Source: Bacteroidota bacterium
GTDB taxonomy: Bacteria; Bacteroidota; Bacteroidia; 2-12-FULL-35-15
Length of the DNA: 64,000 nucleotides
NCBI GenBank assembly: GCA_005772895.1
Contig: SXIH01000040.1
Coordinates: forward strand, 477-64,476
Reading direction: 5' to 3'
The notes under the pieces: model-generated
Database searches by the model: none
Seen by the model: only the letters and a program-made list of their open reading frames with translations
Told to the model about the DNA's origin: nothing
Shown: in pieces, positions 17,024 through 31,317 of the stretch
How the letters are laid out: each line of letters begins with the position of its first letter
Position numbering within the stretch: position 1 is the stretch's first letter
Program-made: the position numbers and the translations under genes

Positions 17024-17872
17024 GTGAATGACCGCTGTAAAACTCTTCTATTTGAACTTGAAGAGCAACTTAAATTTATTTCTCTTGAAACCGATAACCC
17101 GATAGCTTCTGCCGAGATTTCGATTCAGGTATCTCAAAAAATACTCGGCAACTTAAAAGCGTTTATAGTAAAATATAAATTCAGAAGTACATCCGAGGAA
17201 ATAAAATTTTTCAAAGAACACAAGCCTGCATTTCACAGCAAACTTATTTATCATTTACTGGTTTACTATATAGAAACCAAGCGACCAAGCGGTGGGCAAA
17301 AGGTCATTAAAAAGTATCTTCAAAATGAATTGGACAAACTAAAAAGATATTTCGATTCCAATTTAGAATTCTACACATACTACCGCACTGGCAGTAATTA
17401 TCTTGACCACAAATATTTTGTCCGCGATAAGTATGATCCTCGATTATCACCTGAACCTTTCTTCTTTGACAATGATCCGAAATTTTGCACAAGTCATGAT
17501 TATCGGGTTTCAATGATTCTGGCAAATGATTTATTGCAGGTGTATTTAGAAAATGAGTTATCAGAACTTGAAATGAAAGAACCTAAAAAAGCAGAAGTCA
17601 ATCAGAAGTCGGAAGTAACCTGGACAGGGCCCAAAGCCGCGCTAATTGAGCTTTTATATTCCTTGCATTCAGAACCGGTTATCAATTACGGCAAAGCCGA
17701 ATTACAACACATTGCTTCAACCTTAGAAAAAGCGTTTAACATTGATTTAGGGCAATATCACCGCACTTTTCTGGAATTAAGAATGCGCAAGAGTGCTCGT
17801 ACTAAATTTCTCGATAGCTTGCGCGAATCTTTAAAACAACGCATGGATAGTGCGGATGAAGATTTGAAATAG
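17024..17872 (+). CDS. rteC: RteC-domain regulator
   Basis: EEIKFFKEHKP, FYTYYRTG..YLD.KYFVR, WTG.K.ALIELLYSL, F.ELRMRK..RTKFLD.L, characteristic of Bacteroidota CTn RteC. Confidence 0.85.
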   Translation: MNDRCKTLLFELEEQLKFISLETDNPIASAEISIQVSQKILGNLKAFIVKYKFRSTSEEIKFFKEHKPAFHSKLIYHLLVYYIETKRPSGGQKVIKKYLQNELDKLKRYFDSNLEFYTYYRTGSNYLDHKYFVRDKYDPRLSPEPFFFDNDPKFCTSHDYRVSMILANDLLQVYLENELSELEMKEPKKAEVNQKSEVTWTGPKAALIELLYSLHSEPVINYGKAELQHIASTLEKAFNIDLGQYHRTFLELRMRKSARTKFLDSLRESLKQRMDSADEDLK

Positions 17873-17979: not shown

Positions 17980-18279
17980 ATGGCAGTAGAACTTATCACA
18001 AAAGATGACCTCAATTCATTCAAAATAGAGGTACTAAACGAAATCCGTCAAATCCTTAAACCAAAGGGCGGTGCACTATCACAAAAAGAATGGCTTAAAT
18101 CCTATGAAGTTCGTAAGCTTTTAGGAATCTCTCCCGGCAAACTTCAAAACATGCGTGTCAACGGCACCATTGCCTTCACGCAAATTGGTGGCTTGATGTT
18201 TTACAAATACGATGATATAGTAAAACTTATGGAAGACCATAAAACCAAGCATCCATTAATCGCCCGAAATGGAAAATGA
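17980..18279 (+). CDS. Helix-turn-helix (MerR/HTH_17) excisionase-like protein
   Basis: ELITKDDL..FK...WLKSYEVRKLLGIS.G.LQ.MR.NG.I.FTQIGG. Confidence 0.88.
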   Translation: MAVELITKDDLNSFKIEVLNEIRQILKPKGGALSQKEWLKSYEVRKLLGISPGKLQNMRVNGTIAFTQIGGLMFYKYDDIVKLMEDHKTKHPLIARNGK

Positions 18280-19103
18280 ACTACATCACTCATTTAAACA
18301 AAACGTTTGCAATTTTTTGTGAAGATGAAAGGCTAACGCCATTTCATGTGAGTTTGTATTTCAGCTTGTTTCAATACTGGAACATGGCAAGGTTTCGTAG
18401 TCCCATTTCAATCAGTCGCGATGAATTAATGCGGAGTTCAAAAATCGGTTCTGTAAATACCTACATCCGATGCATCAAAGAACTGGACAAATGGGCTTAC
18501 ATAAAATACATTCCATCATTCAATCCACAAAAAGGCTCTCAAGTTTACCTGTACAATTTTAATAATAGTAATAATAATGGCTCTGATATATCTGCTGATA
18601 AAGGCAATAATAAAACTGGTAAGAAAACTACTGGTAAAGCAGGTGAAACGCAAGTGATACCTTCTATAAACAATACAAACAAACTAAACAATACAAACAG
18701 TTTAAACGGCAATAAGCCCACACAAAAAAAAGTAATAATTAAAAAATCAATTTCAGATGGAAAAACCAAAAAAGAAAAAAGTTCCGGGAAAAAGAAAAAA
18801 GGCACAAAAGCCGAACATTCCCCCTCTCTATTGGAGAGGGAATCAGGTGGTGAGGCTCCAACTTCCCAAAGCGTTACAACTTATTTTACCGAAAAGCAAT
18901 GGCCAAGTGTTGAAGGTGAAAAATTTTTCAATCACTATGAGAGTAACGGTTGGTTAGTGGGCGGAAAAACACCAATGAGAAACTGGCAAGCTGCAGCACG
19001 TTACTGGATGTTGAACTCAGAAAAATTTAATAATGGCAAAACAAAACGAACAGCAGGAAAACTCCAGGCAAAAACTGGAAAAGATTACAACGAGCCACTA
19101 TGA
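18276..19103 (+). CDS. Putative replication initiator (N-terminal wHTH, C-terminal FFNHY..NGW..NW.AAA.W domain)
   Basis: HVSLYFSLFQYWN...ISISRDELM..SKIGS..TY..CIKEL wHTH, low-complexity linker, conserved C-terminal motif. 4-bp overlap with the HTH gene. Confidence 0.6.
   Translation: MNYITHLNKTFAIFCEDERLTPFHVSLYFSLFQYWNMARFRSPISISRDELMRSSKIGSVNTYIRCIKELDKWAYIKYIPSFNPQKGSQVYLYNFNNSNNNGSDISADKGNNKTGKKTTGKAGETQVIPSINNTNKLNNTNSLNGNKPTQKKVIIKKSISDGKTKKEKSSGKKKKGTKAEHSPSLLERESGGEAPTSQSVTTYFTEKQWPSVEGEKFFNHYESNGWLVGGKTPMRNWQAAARYWMLNSEKFNNGKTKRTAGKLQAKTGKDYNEPL
18821..18855 (+). repeat. REP-like palindrome inside a CDS
   Basis: CCCCTCTCTATTGGAGAGGGAATCAGGTGGTGAGG resembles the intergenic copy at 52314-52349. 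Confidence 0.6.
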
Positions 19104-19695
19104 GCAACAATTAATTTGGTTAGAAAAAAAAGGTATGGAAGTGTACGGGAATCATTTTAAAATAGTTGAGGAAGATAAGTTTTTATTGTGTCGCATTATA
19201 TGCTATTTTCTGCAAGATGAAAAACCTTCCGAAAAATTGAACATTAATTTTCAAAAAGGTATTTTAATCACTGGCCCTGTAGGTAGTGGAAAAACATCAA
19301 TCATGCACCTGATGCGCTTTTTTCTTCCTGCTCAAAATCGCTACAACATTAAATCCTGCCGCGATGTAAGTTTTGATTTCATAAAAGATGGTTACGAAAC
19401 AATACACAAATACAGTCGCCACAGTTTTAATAATCACAATCCGGTTACTTGGTGCTTTGATGATCTTGGAACCGAAAACAACTTGAAATACTTCGGTAAC
19501 GAGTGTAATGTGATGGCAGAAGTTTTATTAAGCCGTTACGATTTATTTGTAAGTCGCAAACTCCTTACTCATCTCACAACAAATCTCTCAGCTTCCGAAA
19601 TTGAAGAGCAATACGGCAATCGCGTTCGCTCTCGCCTTAGGGAAATGTTTAATCTCATTGCATTCGATAAACAAACAAAAGACAAACGAAAATAA
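19033..19695 (+). CDS. P-loop ATPase, DnaC/IstB-like helicase loader
   Basis: Walker A GPVGSGKT, Walker B CFDDLGTE, TTNLS...YG.RVRSRL.EMFN. Confidence 0.8.
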   Translation: MAKQNEQQENSRQKLEKITTSHYEQQLIWLEKKGMEVYGNHFKIVEEDKFLLCRIICYFLQDEKPSEKLNINFQKGILITGPVGSGKTSIMHLMRFFLPAQNRYNIKSCRDVSFDFIKDGYETIHKYSRHSFNNHNPVTWCFDDLGTENNLKYFGNECNVMAEVLLSRYDLFVSRKLLTHLTTNLSASEIEEQYGNRVRSRLREMFNLIAFDKQTKDKRK

Positions 19696-19721
19696 TTATA
19701 AACCTATAAAAAACAGAAATC

Positions 19722-20510
19722 ATGTGTAAATCAAAAATTCAAGCATTCTTTAGAAAATTAAAAACGGTATTCGGTGGAAAAGGCCAAAGAAAAAATCTGG
19801 GACAAAATCCTCGAAACAATTATGAGCAATTAGAAAGAGAAAATAAATTAGTTCTTTCGTACTTAACAGTCCGAAAGATTATTGGAATATTGGGTTTACT
19901 TTTTCCATTAATTTTAGTTCTTGGTTCATTTATTTTAGGTCACTGCTGCAACATTCAAATTTCAATCAGCAATTATTATCACACCAACATGCGCGATGTC
20001 TTTGTTGGTTATGTCTGTACACTTTCAATTTTCATGCTCTCTTACAAAGGCTATGATTTAGCCGACCGTATTGTTTCAGCCCTTACCGGTATATTCGGTT
20101 TGGTGGTGGCATTAATGCCAACCAACCTCAAAACAGATCCTATCACCGGCTTAATCCCACAATGCAACATTTGGTGTAATGTTGAAAGGCACAACTGGAT
20201 AGGTATTGTGCACTTGGTCGCTGCAGGCTTATTCATCCTTGGCATGGCTTATTTTACACTTTTCCTTTTCACCAAAGGCGAAACTACCCCCACACCGCAA
20301 AAACTCATCAGGAACAAAATATACAAGATTTCCGGTTACATTATGCTTGCGTGCATGGGCATAATGATTGTCTTTTTCGCCTTACCCGACAGCCTAACGG
20401 CCGGTCTGCTCAAATTCAAACCCGTATTTTGGCTTGAAACCATCGCATTCGTAGCCTTCGGCTTCTCATGGTTGGTTAAAGGGGAGTTTTTGTTGAAAGA
20501 CAGCGTATAA
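19722..20510 (+). CDS. Multi-TM membrane protein (DUF998-like)
   Basis: SYLTVRKIIGILG...SISNYYHT.MRD.FVG...H.VAAGLF...WLE..AF.AFG.SWLVKG, about 6 TM. Confidence 0.6.
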   Translation: MCKSKIQAFFRKLKTVFGGKGQRKNLGQNPRNNYEQLERENKLVLSYLTVRKIIGILGLLFPLILVLGSFILGHCCNIQISISNYYHTNMRDVFVGYVCTLSIFMLSYKGYDLADRIVSALTGIFGLVVALMPTNLKTDPITGLIPQCNIWCNVERHNWIGIVHLVAAGLFILGMAYFTLFLFTKGETTPTPQKLIRNKIYKISGYIMLACMGIMIVFFALPDSLTAGLLKFKPVFWLETIAFVAFGFSWLVKGEFLLKDSV

Positions 20511-20652
20511 AACAGCTTAAAAATCAATGCTTCCTTAAAAGAAATCAGGGTTTTATCAAAAATAATATACTACCCTGATTTTTAATGTTTTTTTGTTACT
20601 TTCGGGTGGCTGTATTTCAGTTTATTATCTTCATAAATATTCGTTGGTCTAA

Positions 20653-21300
20653 ATGATAAAGAAAAAAATCCCATATAAAAAAGCGATGCCTGCGAAAAAA
20701 GCAACCACAAAAAAGGTGGTGCCCGCAAAGAAGCTTAAAATTATGGTTTCATCCACTGTCTATGGTTCAGAAAGTGATTTAGAGCAGATTTACGGTTTAT
20801 TGAAAGGATATGGTTATGAAGTAATAATGTCAAAGGAAGGGACAGTTTATGTGCCAATTGGATCTTCACCTACCCAGGCCTGTTTAAAAGCAGTTGAAGA
20901 TTGTGATTTATTTTTAGGCATTATCTTTCCAAGATATGGATCAGGTATTACGCATAAAGAATTTCAAAAAGCCCTCGAATTAGATAAACCAAGATGGTTC
21001 ATAACTCATCACTTTGTTCCTTTTTCCCGTGAGATTCTAAAGCAATTTATGTACACTTCTACTAATAAAAGAATTAAAACATTTAAGTTGAATAGAAACG
21101 GTGTTATGGACAGTGAAAAAGTAATTGATATGTATAATGATGCTATACAAAATGATTTAGACCCTAAGAAAAGAAAATCAAATTGGGCGCAACCGTTTTT
21201 TAGAACAAGCGAGATAATGCCTTTTATTAACACTCAGTTTAATGATCTTGAAAAGCGCAGGGAAGAGTTGTCTGAATATAATAAAACAAAGAAAAAATGA
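20653..21300 (+). CDS. DUF4062-domain protein with Lys/Ala/Pro-rich N-terminal tail
   Basis: IMVSSTVY..E.D.EQI...L...GY, CL.AVEDCDLFLGII..RYGSGITHKEF..A. Confidence 0.8.
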   Translation: MIKKKIPYKKAMPAKKATTKKVVPAKKLKIMVSSTVYGSESDLEQIYGLLKGYGYEVIMSKEGTVYVPIGSSPTQACLKAVEDCDLFLGIIFPRYGSGITHKEFQKALELDKPRWFITHHFVPFSREILKQFMYTSTNKRIKTFKLNRNGVMDSEKVIDMYNDAIQNDLDPKKRKSNWAQPFFRTSEIMPFINTQFNDLEKRREELSEYNKTKKK

Positions 21301-22796
21301 AAACAGACCAATTGATAAAAAACCTTATTAAGCAGAAAGAAAGCGAACAGCTTGAATTTGCCGAATCCTTAAGTAAGGAGCATATTGCTAATACTGTTTG
21401 TGGTTTTTTAAATGGTAAAGGTGGTCAGATTTTAATTGGAGTGAAAGAAAACGGAACGATTACAGGAATATCAAATGCAACAAAATACAAGGAGGAATTA
21501 CATAAATATTTTTCAAGCACATTGCTTCCAGAAGCCCCTATAACAATTAGCATTGAAGATGTAGATAATAAAAACATTGCCAACATAGAAGTATGGGAAG
21601 GTGCCAAAAAACCGTACATTTCCAATGGAAGTATATATTATCGTAAAAAAGACAAAACAGTTCGTGCCAGTTCAAAAGAAATATCAGAATTAATACATAG
21701 CCGTCAGTTATCAGAAACACATTGGGAAAGACAAATTGTATTAGGAGTAGAATTAAAAGACCTTGATACTTCCGAGATAAAAAGCACAATAAAAAATTTA
21801 ACTGACTTTGGTAGTGCAAAGAAATTCTCAGGAGATGTATTGGATTTTTTAACTCACTATGGCTTATTTCAGAATGGATATTTCACTAACTCAGCGGTAG
21901 TGTTATTTGCAAAAGAACCTTCGAGATTCCTACCACAGGTAAGATTCAGAGTTTCAATTTTAAAAGATGAAAAAACGGGTAACAAGTTTATTAACGATAA
22001 ACTATTGGAAGGTAATTTATTTAAAAACTTCAGGGATATAGAACAGTATTTGCAGGCAAATTTAGAGCATCAGCGTGTGTTTAAAAGAGGCAAATGGCAA
22101 CGAACAGATGAATATATTTATCCTACCGAAGCTTTAAGAGAAGGAATAATAAACGCTTTGGTACATCGTAATTACGAAAATATTTCTGGAGGAGCCTCTC
22201 TTATTCTTTATAATGATAGATTAGAAATAACCAATACAGGAAAATTACCGGATAATATGACTGTAGCTGATCTAAAGGTTAGTCATATTTCTTCACCTCC
22301 TAATCCCGATATTGCACAGATATGTTTTTTAAAGGGTTATATTGAAAAGATAGGAAGAGGAACAATTAAAATAATAGAAGAGTTTAAAAAAGCTAAACTT
22401 AAAGAACCTGTATGGAAAACAAGTGGAGGAACTGTAAAACTTACATTCTATAATAATCTTAAACAAAATGATAAGGGAGTAACTGAGGGAGTAATTAGGG
22501 GAATAACTGAGGGAATAAGTAAAACTACAATGGCTAAAATTGAGGCTGTAGTTGAGGGAGTAACTGAGGGAGTAACTGAGGGAGTAAAAAGTAAGATAAA
22601 AGATACTGTACTTGCTATTTATAAACATGAAGGTATAAATACCAATGAAATAGCTGACGCTATTGGAGTACCTGTTAAGAGTTTAGAAAGACACATAAAG
22701 CTTTTAAAAGAGGCTAAAATAATTGAATTTAAAGGTGCTCCAAGAACAGGAGGATATCACATTGCTAAACGTATTATTAATAAAACAAAAAAATAA
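21297..22796 (+). CDS. AlbA_2 (Schlafen-like) + HATPase_c_4 (RecG-C-like) + wHTH protein
   Basis: ESEQLEF..., CGFLN.KGG.ILIGV, YP..ALREGIINALVHRNY, IEITNTG.L, PNPDIA.....GYIEKIGRG, C-terminal HTH ending G....GGY. Confidence 0.88.
   Translation: MKTDQLIKNLIKQKESEQLEFAESLSKEHIANTVCGFLNGKGGQILIGVKENGTITGISNATKYKEELHKYFSSTLLPEAPITISIEDVDNKNIANIEVWEGAKKPYISNGSIYYRKKDKTVRASSKEISELIHSRQLSETHWERQIVLGVELKDLDTSEIKSTIKNLTDFGSAKKFSGDVLDFLTHYGLFQNGYFTNSAVVLFAKEPSRFLPQVRFRVSILKDEKTGNKFINDKLLEGNLFKNFRDIEQYLQANLEHQRVFKRGKWQRTDEYIYPTEALREGIINALVHRNYENISGGASLILYNDRLEITNTGKLPDNMTVADLKVSHISSPPNPDIAQICFLKGYIEKIGRGTIKIIEEFKKAKLKEPVWKTSGGTVKLTFYNNLKQNDKGVTEGVIRGITEGISKTTMAKIEAVVEGVTEGVTEGVKSKIKDTVLAIYKHEGINTNEIADAIGVPVKSLERHIKLLKEAKIIEFKGAPRTGGYHIAKRIINKTKK
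22475..22586 (+). repeat. 12-bp coding tandem repeats (GVTE units)
   Basis: GAGGGAGTAACT units in two blocks encoding GVTEGVIRGITEGI and EGVTEGVTEGV. Confidence 0.85.
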
Positions 22797-23955: not shown

Positions 23956-24327
23956 ATGGAAGGAAACTCTTGTATCAGGGTATATGCTGACCCAACACAG
24001 ATTAAGAACTGTAAGGAATTATTGCGGACAAACTCTGAAGCCTTTGAGAATCTTGCAAAAGTTCTAGAGTTGGCAGGTAATGAAGTCCGGTTAAAAATTC
24101 TTTTTCTTCTCGAAGAGGAAAATGAATTATGTCCCTGTGATTTGAGTGATATTCTTGGTATGAGTATCCCTGCAGTTTCACAACATTTGCGAAAACTGAA
24201 AGACGGTAATATTCTTATCACAAGGCGTGAGGCCCAAACCATATATTATTCGCTGAAAAAAGAACACCTAAAAATTCTTAAACCATTTTTCAAATTCATT
24301 CGTCAGTCGAATGTTATTACAGAATAG
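23956..24327 (+). CDS. ArsR/SmtB metalloregulator
   Basis: SCIRV...C, LAGNEVRLKIL.LL....LCPCDLSDIL..S.PAVSQHLRKLKD. Confidence 0.93.
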   Translation: MEGNSCIRVYADPTQIKNCKELLRTNSEAFENLAKVLELAGNEVRLKILFLLEEENELCPCDLSDILGMSIPAVSQHLRKLKDGNILITRREAQTIYYSLKKEHLKILKPFFKFIRQSNVITE

Positions 24328-24329
24328 CC

Positions 24330-24926
24330 ATGAAACAAGGTAAACTAATAGGAGCCGGAATTCTATCTGCTATTGCAGCGTCCCTTTGTTGTATCACTCC
24401 GGTATTAGCATTAATAGCAGGTACAAGTGGCGCAGCTTCGGCATTCTCTTGGATTGAGCCATACAGACCATACCTGATAGGCTTAACCGCTGTGGTACTT
24501 GGTTTTGCTTGGTATCAAAAACTAAAACCTCAGCAAAAAACTGATTGTGATTGCGCAGTAGATGAAAAACCAAAATTCCTGCAGAGTAAAAAATTTCTGT
24601 TCATAGTTACAGTATTTGCAGTCTTGATGATTGCGTTCCCATATTACGCAAAATTATTCTATCCAAGCCCTGAGAAGGAAGTAATCATCGTTGATAAGTC
24701 AAATATCCGCAAAGTTGAATTTACTATTTCCGGCATGACCTGTGCCAGTTGTGCGGAACACGTATCGCATGAGGTGAATAAACTAACCGGTATCATCAGC
24801 GTGAATGCTTCTTATGAACATGGCAATGCTATAGTAGAGTTTGAAGATACAAAAACAACTATTACCGAAATCGAATCCGCAATAAATTCTACTGGTTATA
24901 TCGCAGCAGAAAAAAAGGAAAAATAA
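24330..24926 (+). CDS. merTP: MerT-MerP fusion heavy-metal transporter
   Basis: ASLCCITP TM motif, CDC loop, C-terminal HMA domain GMTCASC. Confidence 0.88.
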   Translation: MKQGKLIGAGILSAIAASLCCITPVLALIAGTSGAASAFSWIEPYRPYLIGLTAVVLGFAWYQKLKPQQKTDCDCAVDEKPKFLQSKKFLFIVTVFAVLMIAFPYYAKLFYPSPEKEVIIVDKSNIRKVEFTISGMTCASCAEHVSHEVNKLTGIISVNASYEHGNAIVEFEDTKTTITEIESAINSTGYIAAEKKEK

Positions 24927-24927
24927 C

Positions 24928-25137
24928 ATGGAAATTATCACTAAATCAACCATCACTTGCCCAGTATGTGGTCACAAAAAGGTAGAAGTAATGCCAACTG
25001 ACGCCTGCCAATACTTTTATGAATGTGAGAAATGCAAAACCCTTCTGAAACCAAAGCAAGGAGATTGTTGCGTTTATTGCAGCTATGGTTCCGTTAAATG
25101 CCCACCGATGCAACAAAATAATTCCTGCTGTAAATAG
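24928..25137 (+). CDS. GDCCVxC-domain Cys-rich protein
   Basis: TCPVCGH...MP.DACQYFYECEKC...LKPKQGDCCVYCSYG..KCPP. Confidence 0.9.
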   Translation: MEIITKSTITCPVCGHKKVEVMPTDACQYFYECEKCKTLLKPKQGDCCVYCSYGSVKCPPMQQNNSCCK

Positions 25138-27789: not shown

Positions 27790-28212
27790 ATGCTCAAATC
27801 AAAAATCAAAACACACAAAATCGGAAACAGCTACAACCAACCTCACTTTTTTATTCTGAATAAAGGAAGAAATTCAGGTAAACCAAGTCCTGAATGGTAT
27901 AGTAATTCATTTGTTTTCCTTGCAGATTCAGAGGAAGAAAGATGGCACTTTTATTATTTATGTCAAGCCTTATGGCAGGGAAAATATTTTCATCAATTAT
28001 TAATTGGCTCTGTAATTGAGTTTATACGCATTGATGAATTCGCAGTGGCATTGCATCATGCAAATATCACAATCTCTCAAAATAAGGCAGATTTTACAGA
28101 ATTACTTGGGTATTTCAAACAGTTAGATGAACATCAAACTAACCTCACAAAACAAATTAAATTGATTCACCAGGTCAGGCAATCCATGATCTATAAAATG
28201 CTACATAAATAG
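27790..28212 (+). CDS. DUF6943-like protein
   Basis: IKTH...Y..PHFFILNKG.NSGKP.....NSFV...LW....F...L.GSVI.FIRI motif seen in flavobacterial mobile elements. Start moved from 27694. Confidence 0.65.
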   Translation: MLKSKIKTHKIGNSYNQPHFFILNKGRNSGKPSPEWYSNSFVFLADSEEERWHFYYLCQALWQGKYFHQLLIGSVIEFIRIDEFAVALHHANITISQNKADFTELLGYFKQLDEHQTNLTKQIKLIHQVRQSMIYKMLHK

Positions 28213-28654
28213 TGGCAGTTTTTGCCTAATTAAATTTTATATGCAAAGGTAGCAGGTGGGCTGACCCACTTGCCAACACTAATAAAAACAAAAGACTACG
28301 GCATAAACACAGACAAACGCACAGGCTTTCATTTATTTCGTTTCCTTTTGTTTTTATTAATCCACCTACTGAATAAAGCATATAAAATTTAATAATTATG
28401 CTAAAACATCCACGCTTCAAAAAAAATGTCAATCATTCAGGTGTTTGTTCTTTTACACCACAGCTTTTACCTAACAATCTGCAGGTTTCAGCCTATGCTT
28501 TTCAAAGGTATTTGCGCAAATCGTCTTTCACTCATTCTCCAACCCCAAGCATCAAGGCTTATCAGCTTCCGTGCGGTTGCTTTGTTTGGGTTCATTCATC
28601 TGGTGTTCGTCAGCTTTCAGCATTGCCCTTTTAAGGTTTTGCTGAAATAAAAAA

Positions 28655-28675
28655 GGTCGCCCGGTATGGACGACC
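28655..28675 (-). terminator. Intrinsic terminator for the minus-strand module
   Basis: GGTCGCCC...GGACGACC hairpin preceded by an A tract on the + strand. Confidence 0.6.
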
Positions 28676-28703
28676 CTCAATTTACATAACAGATTCTGTA
28701 GGT

Positions 28704-28919
28704 TTATTTCCTCTTACCATTTCGCTTAATGTAGCCCCAAAGCTTTTTTACAGCTTCTTTTAACACAACAGACACAATGAAACTAACCACTGCGCCCAAC
28801 GCTGCAAGGACTACTGTTTTGGTGATGTCTTGCGAATCTATATTCGCTACTACGGTAAAAGCCGTTCCTCCAACAGTGCCTAAAACAGTTCCGCTTTCTA
28901 TGTGTTGATTTGGTGACAT
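28704..28919 (-). CDS. Small 2-TM protein, holin-like
   Basis: GTVGGTAFTVV...DITKTVVLAALGAVVSFIVSVVLK with basic C-terminus. Confidence 0.6.
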   Translation of the reverse strand: MSPNQHIESGTVLGTVGGTAFTVVANIDSQDITKTVVLAALGAVVSFIVSVVLKEAVKKLWGYIKRNGKRK

Positions 28920-28928
28920 TGTTTACTC

Positions 28929-29207
28929 TTAGGAAGTTTGATCAGTTTTACCTGAATCTGCTTTAGTCAGTTTGGAATGAGATTCCAAAGCGATTTTTGG
29001 ACAACCACAACTACCATCATTTTCTGTTGGTTCGATTCGGATGATAACTTTCTCCTCACTGTTATACCCAACGCGGCCGGCATCAGCTTTTGTAAGCTTA
29101 CTGCCTGCTGCTATCGCATCAATCAGTTCGCCTTTGTTCATGTCGAAAGTTTTTACTTTCACATCAAACTCAATGGTTGTGATGTTTTGTTTTTCGTTTT
29201 CTTGCAT
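28929..29207 (-). CDS. Small protein containing an HU N-terminal helix motif
   Basis: MNKGELIDAIAAGSKLTKADAGR versus HU-beta [30 protein letters not shown] is repeated at the C-terminus. Confidence 0.55.
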   Translation of the reverse strand: MQENEKQNITTIEFDVKVKTFDMNKGELIDAIAAGSKLTKADAGRVGYNSEEKVIIRIEPTENDGSCGCPKIALESHSKLTKADSGKTDQTS

Positions 29208-29238
29208 CGCAATTAAATTTTAAAGATTAAACAATGTT

Positions 29239-29463
29239 TTATTTAATAACAGCATCAGTTACTTTCAACTTTCGTTCTGTTTGAATATGAATATTCAAAT
29301 CAAAAGTTTCTTCTGTTTCGGTTTGCTCTTCGCAAACCTCAACTGCAACCATTGTTGTTAATTTTCCCAATTCAGGTCCCGCTTTGAAGCGCGGTACTTT
29401 TTTTGCTTTTACTCGGATGAATAAATCATTTTTAACCTCGTTTTTTTCACATGTATTTTCCAT
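29239..29463 (-). CDS. Small protein containing an HU C-terminal motif
   Basis: IRVKAKKVPRFKAGPEL versus HU I.I.AKKVP.FKAG..L. Start moved from 29511. Confidence 0.55.
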   Translation of the reverse strand: MENTCEKNEVKNDLFIRVKAKKVPRFKAGPELGKLTTMVAVEVCEEQTETEETFDLNIHIQTERKLKVTDAVIK

Positions 29464-29483
29464 TGTGAATGTGATTTTAAGAA

Positions 29484-29750
29484 TTAATACTCTTTTTTTT
29501 TCGGCTCGCACTCTTCGTCTTTCACTGCCACTTGGCTAACCGCAGTCGCTACGCTTCCTGCTACAATTAGGTAACCGCCAGCGGTTACGATCGCAGCGGG
29601 TAGGGCTATTGGTGCTGCCACCAATACGCCACCCACAGCTGCTAATGTTAAGCCAACTAATCGCAGTTTTTTAAAGAACGGAGGAGTGTCAGCTTTGCAA
29701 CGCTCTATGAGTGTTTTTACAAAGCCTTTTTTGTTTCCGATTTCGCCCAT
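29484..29750 (-). CDS. Small 2-TM protein, holin-like
   Basis: ER.KA.TP.FFK.LR.VGL.L.AV.G....AP..LPA.....GGY....G.V..AVSQ. Confidence 0.6.
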   Translation of the reverse strand: MGEIGNKKGFVKTLIERCKADTPPFFKKLRLVGLTLAAVGGVLVAAPIALPAAIVTAGGYLIVAGSVATAVSQVAVKDEECEPKKKEY

Positions 29751-29766
29751 TATTCAGCCTCCCTTC

Positions 29767-30516
29767 TTATGCCACCTCAACAATACTTAAAGTATTGTGA
29801 GCGCCATTTTTAAGTGAATACTGAACTGCATTTACTTCCTGGAAGAATTCAATTTGTAACAAATACAAATCAGTTCCCGCGCCTGCCGGTACACCTGCAG
29901 GCGTTAGCACCACGTTTGTTGCCACTCCATCTATTGGAAGGTTTACTACGTTGCTTGCCTGTAAATCGTACAAGCCAGTCGCAAAATCCAATTTCAGCCA
30001 AGATCCCTTTAAAGTAATGTGTGTAGCACCCGATGGAAAATTAATGTGATTGATTGGCTCCAAACCGTTGATGGTGATTACACCTGTTCCGGTATTTACT
30101 GCATACGGTTGAAACAAGATGCTTCCCAAAATTGCTTTTTTATTGAAGTTGAAATTCTTCAACAACGCTTTTGCAGCTGGTAAAGCAATTGCAACGCCAA
30201 CATTTCTCAAACCTCTTACGCTTGTCGCGTCAAGGTTTTTGATGTCGGTCATTACTTTGGTTAAACGAGAAACAACTCTGTTGTCAGAAGCAGTTTGCAA
30301 CATTGCAAACAATGCTGTTCTCAGGGTTTTACCTGAGCTTGCAGATGAGCCAAACTCCGCACCGTTCTCTCTTGTTCTCACAAAAGCGGGATCGTTTTGG
30401 ATGCGTTCCGCATCCACGCCCCCTTTTTCACGGGCTAAGTGGCCATCTTGCGTTTTGTAAAAGGAAATATCTCCGATTTTCCCTTTTAGCTTGATGATTC
30501 CTTTTTGCCTTGCCAT
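29767..30516 (-). CDS. Conserved hypothetical protein (MARQKG family) of flavobacterial mobile elements
   Basis: Basic N-terminus MARQKGIIKLKGKIGDISFYKT...F.RTRENG.EFG, beta-rich C-terminal half ending EFFQEVN...Y.LKNG. Confidence 0.75.
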   Translation of the reverse strand: MARQKGIIKLKGKIGDISFYKTQDGHLAREKGGVDAERIQNDPAFVRTRENGAEFGSSASSGKTLRTALFAMLQTASDNRVVSRLTKVMTDIKNLDATSVRGLRNVGVAIALPAAKALLKNFNFNKKAILGSILFQPYAVNTGTGVITINGLEPINHINFPSGATHITLKGSWLKLDFATGLYDLQASNVVNLPIDGVATNVVLTPAGVPAGAGTDLYLLQIEFFQEVNAVQYSLKNGAHNTLSIVEVA

Positions 30517-30757
30517 TTTTTATGGATTTAGGTTAATTTTTGATTGAATTTTTGTGTTGCAACACATCAAACGCCACTTTATCGCGAATAAATTTTGTTC
30601 GATATCACAAAAGTATTTCGTGTTCTCTCAGCTCACAACTTCGTTGTTCCGCTTCGTTCACTTTGATTCACTTTGTGCCGATTATGTATAAAAGTGTAGT
30701 AGGTAATCTCGGTATCTTTGCTCTATGTCAACCCCATAGATAAAGCATAGATAAAGT

Positions 30758-30958
30758 ATGAGTAAAACAGTTCGGGCATGTATTTACCCCAAAGATGTGA
30801 TGCGGATAACAGGAAAAAGTGAAAGGTATGCCCGGAAGTTTTTGAATGAGATCAAAAAGCATTTTGAAAAACCCAGCCACCAGTTCGTCACCGTTAGAGA
30901 GTTCTCATCTTATACCGGAATTGATATTTCCACAATAGAAACTTACTTAATTGACTAA
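30758..30958 (+). CDS. Small HTH DNA-binding protein (excisionase-like)
   Basis: CIYPKDVMRITGKSERYARK.L..IK...K..HQFVT..EF..YTGI. Divergent from the MARQKG gene. Confidence 0.7.
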   Translation: MSKTVRACIYPKDVMRITGKSERYARKFLNEIKKHFEKPSHQFVTVREFSSYTGIDISTIETYLID

Positions 30959-31143
30959 TTTATTTTGATTTATTATGTTGCATTTTCACTATATAATAAT
31001 ACCTTTGTCGCAGTTAAAGTTCTTTTTATTACTTCGTCAAATCCGTACATTTTAAGTCAAGATAATGGGGACTAATTCGGTTACTAAATCGGGTTTTGAT
31101 TCGTTAAAATTGTTGATTAACAATATATTGGGAGTGAAACAGT

Positions 31144-31160
31144 AATCTGGCCACCCCGAC
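31144..31160 (+). other. Candidate attR: tRNA-Pro-like 3' end remnant
   Basis: AATCTGGCCACCCCGAC resembles the ...ATCCTGCCACCCCGAC 3' end of CGGGGTG-starting tRNA-Pro genes and lies 78 bp before tRNA-Arg. Confidence 0.55.
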
Positions 31161-31238
31161 AAAATAAATGGTTAATGGTTATTTGTTATATCTTACTTAT
31201 AACATATTCATCGTTAACCTTTTTTTTTCATGTTAATT

Positions 31239-31312
31239 GACCCCATAGCTCAGCTGGATAGAGCAACGGTTTTCTAAACCGTAGGCCTTTGGTTCGAATC
31301 CAAATGGGGTCA
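31239..31312 (+). tRNA. tRNA-Arg (anticodon TCT)
   Basis: GACCCCA/TGGGGTC acceptor stem, GCTCAGCTGGATAGAGC D arm, ACGGT-TT-TCT-AA-ACCGT anticodon arm, GGTTCGAATCC T arm. Confidence 0.97.
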
Positions 31313-31317
31313 CCTTT

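Follow-up and report, generated by a model that had tools for sequence, protein, structure and literature searches.

A conserved right-end module of Bacteroidota tyrosine-recombinase islands headed by the MARQKG protein family

What is a compact operon of small genes, two of which encode short membrane proteins with a holin-like layout, doing next to the end of a mobile element? The question is raised by positions 28704-30958 of a 64,000-nt stretch of DNA from a Bacteroidota bacterium (contig SXIH01000040.1, positions 477 to 64,476, of assembly GCA_005772895.1; the whole stretch is referred to here as the window). A minus-strand operon there is headed by the gene of a 249-aa protein, MARQKG, and faced by a divergent gene for a small helix-turn-helix (HTH) protein. 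A sequence-only reading had proposed that this was the particle or DNA-export module of a small mobile element. Our comparisons instead give good support to the view that 27.8-31.16 kb is the conserved right-end backbone module of a large family of Bacteroidota tyrosine-recombinase islands that also has plasmid-borne relatives. Defence and toxin-antitoxin genes fill a variable cargo slot that separates this module from the remaining backbone. As to function, we tentatively favour, at a probability of about 0.42, a control or maintenance unit in which a Cox-like excisionase/repressor would work with a basic, probably nucleic-acid-binding MARQKG and with membrane-active accessories.

Five open reading frames (ORFs) are packed into 28704-30516 on the minus strand. 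From the promoter end they encode MARQKG (29767-30516), an 88-aa protein with two transmembrane segments (2-TM; TM88, 29484-29750), a soluble 75-aa protein (29239-29463), a soluble 92-aa protein (HU92, 28929-29207) and a second 2-TM protein, of 71 aa (TM71, 28704-28919). The 75-aa gene was taken from its ATG (MENTCEK); with the listed GTG at 29511 as its start it would overlap the gene before it. With that start the intergenic gaps are 16, 20, 31 and 9 nt, and the tight packing with 9-31 bp gaps first seen in the sequence is borne out. The divergent gene, on the plus strand at 30758-30958, encodes a 66-aa HTH protein. All six ORFs are under purifying selection: the median ratio of nonsynonymous to synonymous substitution (dN/dS) is 0.09-0.32 (0.086 for MARQKG, 0.17 for TM88, 0.32 for the 75-aa protein, 0.22 for HU92 and 0.20 for TM71), and the proportion of synonymous differences (pS) is 0.59-0.83, near saturation. 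Low dN/dS at nearly saturated synonymous sites means that these are real genes and that their conservation is not merely a matter of recent transfer.

A scan of one genome per GTDB species placed relatives of the 249-aa protein at 501 sites, and the locus counts below rest on the best 80 of these, which come from different Bacteroidota species and were each taken with 10 kb of flank. The order of genes is kept across the 80 loci. Where the HTH gene is present (54 of 80), it is always divergent and stands about -440 from the MARQKG start. MARQKG is followed in nine loci by a DUF5675 gene, then by a 2-TM protein (TM88 homologs in 54/80), one to three small soluble proteins, most of which carry the motif SKLTKADxG, and the second 2-TM protein (TM71 homologs in 47/80). 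Last in the series, and convergent with the operon, come a small ORF (77-78 aa) and a DUF6943 gene. The 75-aa protein occupies a variable slot and has homologs in only 9 of the 80. In about a third of the loci, which we call the Chitinophagaceae type, the TM genes are absent and the small ORF and DUF6943 come directly after MARQKG. Outward of DUF6943 on one side and of the HTH gene on the other, nothing is conserved in the 80 loci. The statement of the sequence-only reading that this gene set recurs in integrative elements is supported by these loci and by the tRNA junctions and homology breakpoints described below.

The protein that heads the operon belongs to a large and uniform family. At E <= 1e-3 it has 5106 relatives when sequences are clustered at 90% identity and 3661 when they are clustered at 50%; nearly all are 248-253 aa long, every one is named hypothetical by its source, and none has a Pfam domain. 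MARQKG is among the larger protein families that have no Pfam, PHROG or NCBIfam model and no structural relative. Longer members, considered as possible domain fusions, proved to be mis-called starts or low-complexity tails. The AlphaFold2 (AF2) model made from a diverse alignment (predicted local distance difference test [pLDDT] 92.3, predicted template modelling score [pTM] 0.85) has a three-stranded N-terminal beta-meander (residues 12-30), a helical domain (36-133) and an eight-stranded beta-sandwich (139-248). Residues 1-135, the best-conserved part, have an isoelectric point (pI) of 10-11, while the C-terminal sandwich is acidic (pI 4.7); the basic N-terminal and beta-rich C-terminal halves that had been read from the sequence are both there. 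No signal peptide was seen in the sequence.

The cassette proteins were compared with the Pfam, PHROGs, NCBIfam and PADLOC profile libraries and gave only sub-threshold noise, except for DUF6943 and a Cox-like hint discussed below. MARQKG matched nothing in any of the four. PADLOC likewise gave no match for TM88, p90, HU92, TM71 or DUF6943, and for the HTH gene a weak match to mad1 only (E 0.0013). In Foldseek searches with a cut-off of E 1e-3, two MARQKG models (pLDDT 82.8 and 92.3) found no match in the PDB, and the first of them found none in BFVD; the best matches were generic Ig-like sandwiches (adhesin repeats), with template modelling scores below 0.4. A MARQKG sequence profile run against PDB sequences gave nothing significant. 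The structural comparison thus produced no capsid, coat or tail fold and no ordinary enzyme or regulator fold either. Together with 0 tblastn matches in 50,697 phage records and 0 confirmed relatives in 2.9 million IMG/VR contigs, scanned for two peptide motifs of MARQKG, it speaks against the idea that the protein is nucleocapsid- or coat-like.

Where does the element that carries this module end? The HTH gene stops 205 bp from the element terminus, and the intervening 30959-31163 is the non-coding right arm of the attachment region, holding GGGACTAATTCGGTTACTAAAT (31067-31089) and the terminal motif TCTGGCCACCCCGACAAA (31146-31163). In seven other loci (L003, L006, L011, L013, L016, L018 and L032) similarity to the window stops at 31160-31167, right after TCTGGCCACCCCGACAAA, and the flanks past the breakpoint are unrelated and consist mostly of terminator hairpins. 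The right end of the element lies at about 31163. Two further replicons contain the junction expected of an excised circle, in which MARQKG and the HTH gene are followed by the terminal motif and, about 230 bp on, by a tyrosine integrase: the metagenome contig of L008 (positions 1-1900) and the circular 25.3-kb replicon of Marivirga sp. BKB1-2 (L081, NZ_CP129969.1, positions 18300-22000), which was deposited as a circular plasmid. The GGGACTAATTCGGTTAC motif is found again upstream of the L008 integrase. The placing of the small HTH gene next to a candidate att end is upheld by the breakpoint and by these HTH-to-integrase junctions. No excision joints were found in the source metagenome contigs that hold the window. 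The Marivirga record shows apparent frameshifts in MARQKG and in the integrase, and its DUF5675 gene is truncated.

At the opposite end of the window, positions 1-1215 of the plus strand encode a tyrosine integrase (Pfam Arm-DNA-bind_5, Phage_int_SAM_5 and Phage_integrase) whose frame is already open at base 1, the N-terminus lying outside the window. The protein shares 73% identity with the L008 integrase found after the HTH gene and 48% with the integrase of the Marivirga replicon, and its gene is probably the left-end gene of the same island. Between the two ends are other genes of the element backbone, an RteC regulator (17024-17872, plus strand; Pfam RteC, E 9e-82) and an HTH_17 gene of the excisionase family (17980-18279, plus strand; E 1e-6). 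A few loci have homologs of the two at a distance of 4-10 kb from the cassette, and HTH_17 and the next two backbone genes are common to the window and the Marivirga replicon. Most likely, then, the window holds an island of ~31 kb that runs from the integrase to 31163, with its left end outside the window.

The elements fall into two groups by what lies at this end. Those of the HTH type that end in TCTGGCCACCCCGACAAA (L008 and the seven loci with mapped breakpoints) occupy many different sites, each beside a terminator-like hairpin, which suggests either that a Tn4555-like integrase of low specificity prefers terminators or that the element brings a variable terminator of its own. In the window the flank outside the element begins with such a hairpin and its T run (31170-31228, plus strand), followed by a tRNA-Arg(TCT) gene (31239-31314, plus strand), the only Rfam match in 27.5-31.4 kb. 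This tRNA is probably incidental, because its 5' end is the one nearer the element and it starts 75 bp past the conserved terminus. The arrangement differs from that of the other group, 17 loci in which a complete tRNA gene (Lys, Cys, Asp, Met, Arg, Phe or Glu) lies on the same strand at -437 to -455, with its 3' end at the junction. There the tRNA takes the place of the HTH gene and is succeeded by its terminator and tandem 11-mers; past the tRNA, the loci inspected have housekeeping genes. In eight of these elements (L004, L005, L010, L017, L020, L023, L026 and L034) the tandem 11-mer is GGTAAAACATAGGTAAAACA or a variant, just inside the tRNA terminator. The 11-mers stand about -330 to -300 from the MARQKG start and are probably arm-type integrase sites; HTH-type elements carry GGGACTAATTCGGTTAC instead. 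No att direct repeats were found within 10 kb of the tRNA junctions, so the tRNA-type elements are longer than the flanks that were fetched. Mapped in this way, the homologs are linked to att sites or element ends by 17 tRNA junctions and seven breakpoints.

MARQKG also occurs on plasmids. One Fulvitalea axinellae strain has a homolog on each of seven plasmids of 44-325 kb; the three that were inspected (pFA12, pFA9 and pFA3; L082, L086 and L087) have the HTH gene or a similar small ORF upstream of MARQKG, the HTH homolog being confirmed for pFA12, and no TM genes after it. MARQKG stands beside rep and parAB on pFA12 and near rep on pFA9. The copies on these two are 97% identical to each other, and that on pFA3 is 55-57% identical to both.

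The region between MARQKG and the HTH gene has the look of a control region. The promoter-proximal part and 5' leader of the operon (30517-30615, minus strand) were delimited from upstream-region alignments, which place a Bacteroidetes-type -7 box, TACTTTTG, at 30608-30615. The leader contains an invariant ATTCGCGATA at 30580-30589 and a palindrome, GTGTTGCAACAC, at 30554-30565; in 45 of 76 loci TCGCGA is found between -53 and -91, apart from one outlier at -140. An RNA element in the leader was considered and dropped: the leader folds no better than shuffled sequences, and RNAalifold gave no consensus. Abutting the start of the HTH gene are two tandem copies of an operator-like 11-bp repeat, CATAGATAAAG (30735-30756). 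In nearly all tRNA-type and HTH-type loci this motif occurs at -230 to -265, in one to three copies phased by 11 bp; its background is 1.4 matches per kb. The HTH protein itself is a candidate Cox-like excisionase/repressor. The window copy matches phrog_575, the family of that name, weakly (E 0.01), and four members of a mixed set of 53 proteins, 13 of them HTH homologs, match it with a best E of 7e-6; we attribute these matches to the HTH family.

These features together lead us to propose a control or maintenance function. Circularisation would place the 66-aa HTH gene directly upstream of the integrase, and its product would act as a Cox-like excisionase/repressor. MARQKG would be the nucleic-acid-binding partner in the control region, serving maintenance, regulation or recombination, and may act at the phased 11-bp repeats. 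The 2-TM proteins, the HU-motif peptides and the occasional DUF5675 would be lineage-specific accessories that are co-expressed with MARQKG and are most likely membrane-active, of an exclusion, suicide or lysis type. We favour this explanation because the HTH gene and MARQKG form the minimal conserved unit, as on the plasmids and in Chitinophagaceae-type loci; because the pair sits at the junction that joins the integrase on circularisation; because the conserved half of MARQKG is strongly basic; and because the operator-like repeat is kept with or without the HTH gene.

Several observations weigh on the other side. MARQKG has no recognisable DNA- or RNA-binding fold or motif, and its conservation across orders is far above that usual for immunity-type repressors. 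The HTH family profile gave nothing significant against PDB sequences, and the Cox-like call derives from weak hidden Markov model (HMM) scores (E 0.01). The pair is not obligatory, since the 17 tRNA-type loci have no HTH gene. The link between integrase and module spans 30 kb and is drawn from gene order in two other replicons, and the part given to the TM proteins follows from their size, topology and charge.

How does this arrangement compare with known control regions? As in P2 (Cox) and in the cI-rexAB-cro region of phage λ, divergent units lie at the integration end, the small HTH protein has Cox-family HMM matches, and the opposite promoter serves the gene of a larger protein along with those of small membrane proteins. 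The differences are that MARQKG has no HTH or repressor-like fold and no PDB match at E 1e-3, and that these elements are not phages, since searches turned up no structural or packaging genes.

The element itself is of a known kind, a Bacteroidota tyrosine-recombinase island or mobilisable transposon. It shares with the integrative mobilisable elements and mobilisable transposons of Bacteroidetes (NBU1/NBU2, Tn4555) and with relaxase-less mobilisable islands the Arm-DNA-bind_5/SAM_5 tyrosine integrase, a small HTH gene upstream of it in the circular form, the RteC-type regulator and, in one subgroup, the position beside tRNA 3' ends. It differs from them in that no MobP-type relaxase or recognisable oriT (origin of transfer) was found here, and in its cargo, which is mainly defence and toxin-antitoxin genes rather than antibiotic resistance. 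We know of no counterpart, in descriptions of those elements, of an end module made up of MARQKG, DUF6943, the small ORF and a hairpin. The literature searched, on DUF6943, satellites and RteC islands, holds no description of it, and the module and the MARQKG family are undescribed in the libraries and literature that we covered. The other subgroup of our elements, like Tn4555, inserts at many sites with a fixed element terminus (PMC5704250).

Among the alternatives, the one that survives best, though we consider it unlikely, is Rex-like exclusion or abortive infection. MARQKG would then be a cytosolic sensor, the two 2-TM proteins, with four helices between them, would form a membrane-depolarising effector, and both would be expressed from the control region of the element, as rexA and rexB of λ are alongside cI. 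The analogy draws on the layout, an operon for a cytosolic protein of ~250 aa and small membrane proteins with a divergent Cox/Cro-like gene next to it, as well as on the defence cargo of the islands and on the frequency with which new defence proteins have no known fold. It is difficult to reconcile with the fact that roughly one locus in three, and the plasmids, have no TM genes while MARQKG is under strong constraint. Moreover, the module gave no PADLOC match and no PDB fold match reached E 1e-3, and it is fixed in a core position and universal in the family, unlike the shuffled defence cargo alongside it.

A second alternative, less probable still, is suggested by the DNA beyond the operon. 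Between the DUF6943 gene and the small ORF is a very stable branched hairpin of about 165 nt (28229-28393), with a minimum free energy (MFE) of -47 kcal/mol against -22.9 for shuffled sequences (z = -7.8). At the nucleotide level it and the small ORF that follows it are kept at 68-92% identity in at least 29 loci. The hairpin has a covarying pair (CG, AU or GC) and apical stems that appear compensatory in the alignment, and nothing in Rfam matches it; it is a candidate for an oriT, a single-strand promoter or origin, or a non-coding RNA. On its far side from DUF6943 lies a small conserved Cys-containing ORF (28398-28634, plus strand) of 78 aa, which ends ...LPCGCFVWVHSSGVRQLSALPF; it has a dN/dS of 0.33, is open in at least 23 loci with variation mostly at third codon positions as read from the alignment, is annotated in L083 and L084 as a gene of 77 aa, and matches no family. 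DUF6943 (27790-28212, plus strand; Pfam E 1e-40, dN/dS 0.23) stands beside the cassette in 46 of 80 loci, always convergent with the operon, and its profile gave nothing significant against PDB sequences. A likeness of DUF6943 to the HsdS specificity domain had no support in sequence searches and was dropped.

If the module serves a relaxase-less island in mobilisation or establishment, the hairpin would be the oriT or a single-strand promoter or origin, and MARQKG, DUF6943 and the small ORF would recruit co-resident conjugative machinery or act early in the recipient. Islands that have only an oriT and are mobilised by integrative and conjugative elements (ICEs) are known (PMC5704250). In keeping with such a lifestyle, the scanned window ORFs contain no relaxase, Mob or tra domain, nor do the 25 most frequent of 105 cargo Pfam families include a relaxase or tra family, and RteC, a regulator of the CTnDOT type, is present; the hairpin, conserved in sequence and structure, adjoins the module, and the HTH and MARQKG pair is found on plasmids. 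On the other hand, nothing in the module resembles a known oriT, relaxosome or leading-region protein, MARQKG is on the strand opposite to the hairpin, small ORF and DUF6943, and the Fulvitalea and Marivirga plasmids are typed as non-mobilisable.

Could the membrane proteins point to lysis instead? TM71 and its homologs are 61-71 aa long, with two predicted TM segments and a K/R-rich tail, which is the size, topology and charge of a holin; the first helix of TM71 is weakly hydrophobic, and in these features it may be called pinholin-like. TM88 has Gly/Ala-rich helices, an amphipathic N-terminus and an acidic or mixed tail. Neither protein has a Pfam, PHROG, NCBIfam or PADLOC family or a tblastn match in the 50,697 phage records, 23 homologs of the TM proteins matched no holin PHROG, and the window has no endolysin or lysin gene beside the TM genes. 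Of the earlier description of these proteins as holin-like, then, the size, the topology and the basic tail of TM71 stand, and a holin family, an adjacent lysin and a phage match are missing. The enzyme that accompanies them elsewhere is DUF5675, a phage-related peptidoglycan peptidase (C82/YkuD-like) with relatives in 136 phage records, proposed in a preprint to be a C82-like lysin (bioRxiv 10.64898/2026.04.11.717860). It lies between MARQKG and the TM88 homolog in 9/80 loci and in the Marivirga replicon, and TM88 directly follows it wherever it is present. The sequence-only reading had supposed that an amidase was missing and had been replaced by ORFs with an HU motif; the enzyme is DUF5675, and because it coexists with HU-motif or other small ORFs in those nine loci, these are no replacement for it.

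In a lysis or release module, which we regard as improbable, the holin-like TM proteins, with DUF5675 where present, would open the envelope and release DNA, vesicles, particles or MARQKG itself, much as in holin-endopeptidase secretion or colicin-type release. The small two-TM proteins, one with a charged C-terminal tail, are indeed what holin-endolysin cassettes, holin-endopeptidase secretion and colicin lysis also use, and the pinholin-like TM71, the peptidase directly upstream of the first TM gene and a MARQKG with a basic N-terminus and no signal peptide all fit. The differences are that holin homology and a window lysin are lacking, that MARQKG, TM88 and TM71 do not occur in phage genomes (nor MARQKG in IMG/VR, by the two-motif scan), and that the cassette is headed by a conserved cytoplasmic protein which is also found without TM or peptidase genes, MARQKG being present alone on plasmids as large as 325 kb. 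Nor is there a capsid, coat or tail fold, and packaging genes were seen neither in the window nor in the commonest cargo families.

An equally doubtful prospect is that MARQKG, the small membrane proteins and the hairpin make up an unrecognised system for the spread or survival of relaxase-less islands and plasmids; it could be one that releases DNA into vesicles by lysis, or one in which a switch or partition protein of a new class binds a conserved host machine. Least supported of all is the particle or coat module that had been proposed at the outset, because there is no fold match, no viral occurrence and no packaging gene, and MARQKG is on plasmids as large as 325 kb; the absence of an endolysin, terminase or known capsid gene, which that reading had itself recorded, was confirmed by Pfam scans of the window ORFs, which also contain no linked portal or scaffold gene.

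Under the control or maintenance explanation that we prefer, the module would be a compact, testable control region. MARQKG marks the end of widespread environmental Bacteroidota islands with defence and toxin-antitoxin cargo, and its gene, together with the terminal motif or a tRNA junction, can serve in practice to locate such islands and their cargo slots. If MARQKG does regulate excision, or mediates a new route of spread or exclusion, it would fill a gap in the understanding of how relaxase-less elements persist and move.

The small soluble proteins of the operon have a character of their own. HU92 has an HU-like N-terminal motif, its residues 23-46 matching only the first 24 positions of Pfam Bac_DNA_binding (HU; E 0.022), and members of its family carry one to four copies of SKLTKADxG. 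In the window (28929-29207) and in L002, L004, L026, L027 and L039, SKLTKADxG(R) is often at the very C-terminus of the small soluble proteins, many of which also have an ELIDAIA segment resembling HU helix 1 and CGCP motifs. These proteins look like carriers of a repeated peptide module or a mimic of the HU N-terminal segment.

The operon is closed by a hairpin that resembles an intrinsic terminator (28646-28680), which reads GGGTCGTCC-ataccg-GGCGACC and then a T run on the minus strand. Around it, at 28604-28754, unitigs assembled from the source freshwater metagenomes are interrupted and word depth goes up; the stretch takes in the terminator and the 3' ends of the small ORF and the TM71 gene. 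A third metagenome run has a depth of 19 there and none of the remainder of the window. This indicates that other organisms in the samples carry near-identical sequence at 28604-28754.

Cargo was surveyed in 146 element-side ORFs from the 80 loci, which yielded the 105 Pfam families mentioned above. The families include HipA, AbiEii, M78/IrrE, AAA_15, SMODS, DUF3800 and T5orf172, with no capsid or terminase family among the 25 most frequent. In the window the cargo comprises an AAA ATPase, a DUF4062 protein, a Schlafen/AlbA_2 protein, an integron-cassette protein and a metal cluster. The metal cluster (23956-25137) encodes an ArsR-family regulator, a MerT-HMA fusion and a GDCCVxC-domain (seleno)protein (NCBIfam E 2e-31), and is followed on the other strand by a Crp-family regulator. 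At 19033-20510 the N-terminal part of an ATPase of the AAA_23/AAA_15/SMC_N type (220 aa) is followed after 27 nt by a 262-aa ORF that has no domain, and the two may be a split or frameshifted defence ATPase; the N-terminal part is found again in the Marivirga replicon. Finally, within the 3' part of the Schlafen/AlbA_2-HATPase_c_4 gene, at 22474-22599, a 33-nt unit based on a 12-nt repeat (AGGGAGTAACTG) occurs in six overlapping copies.

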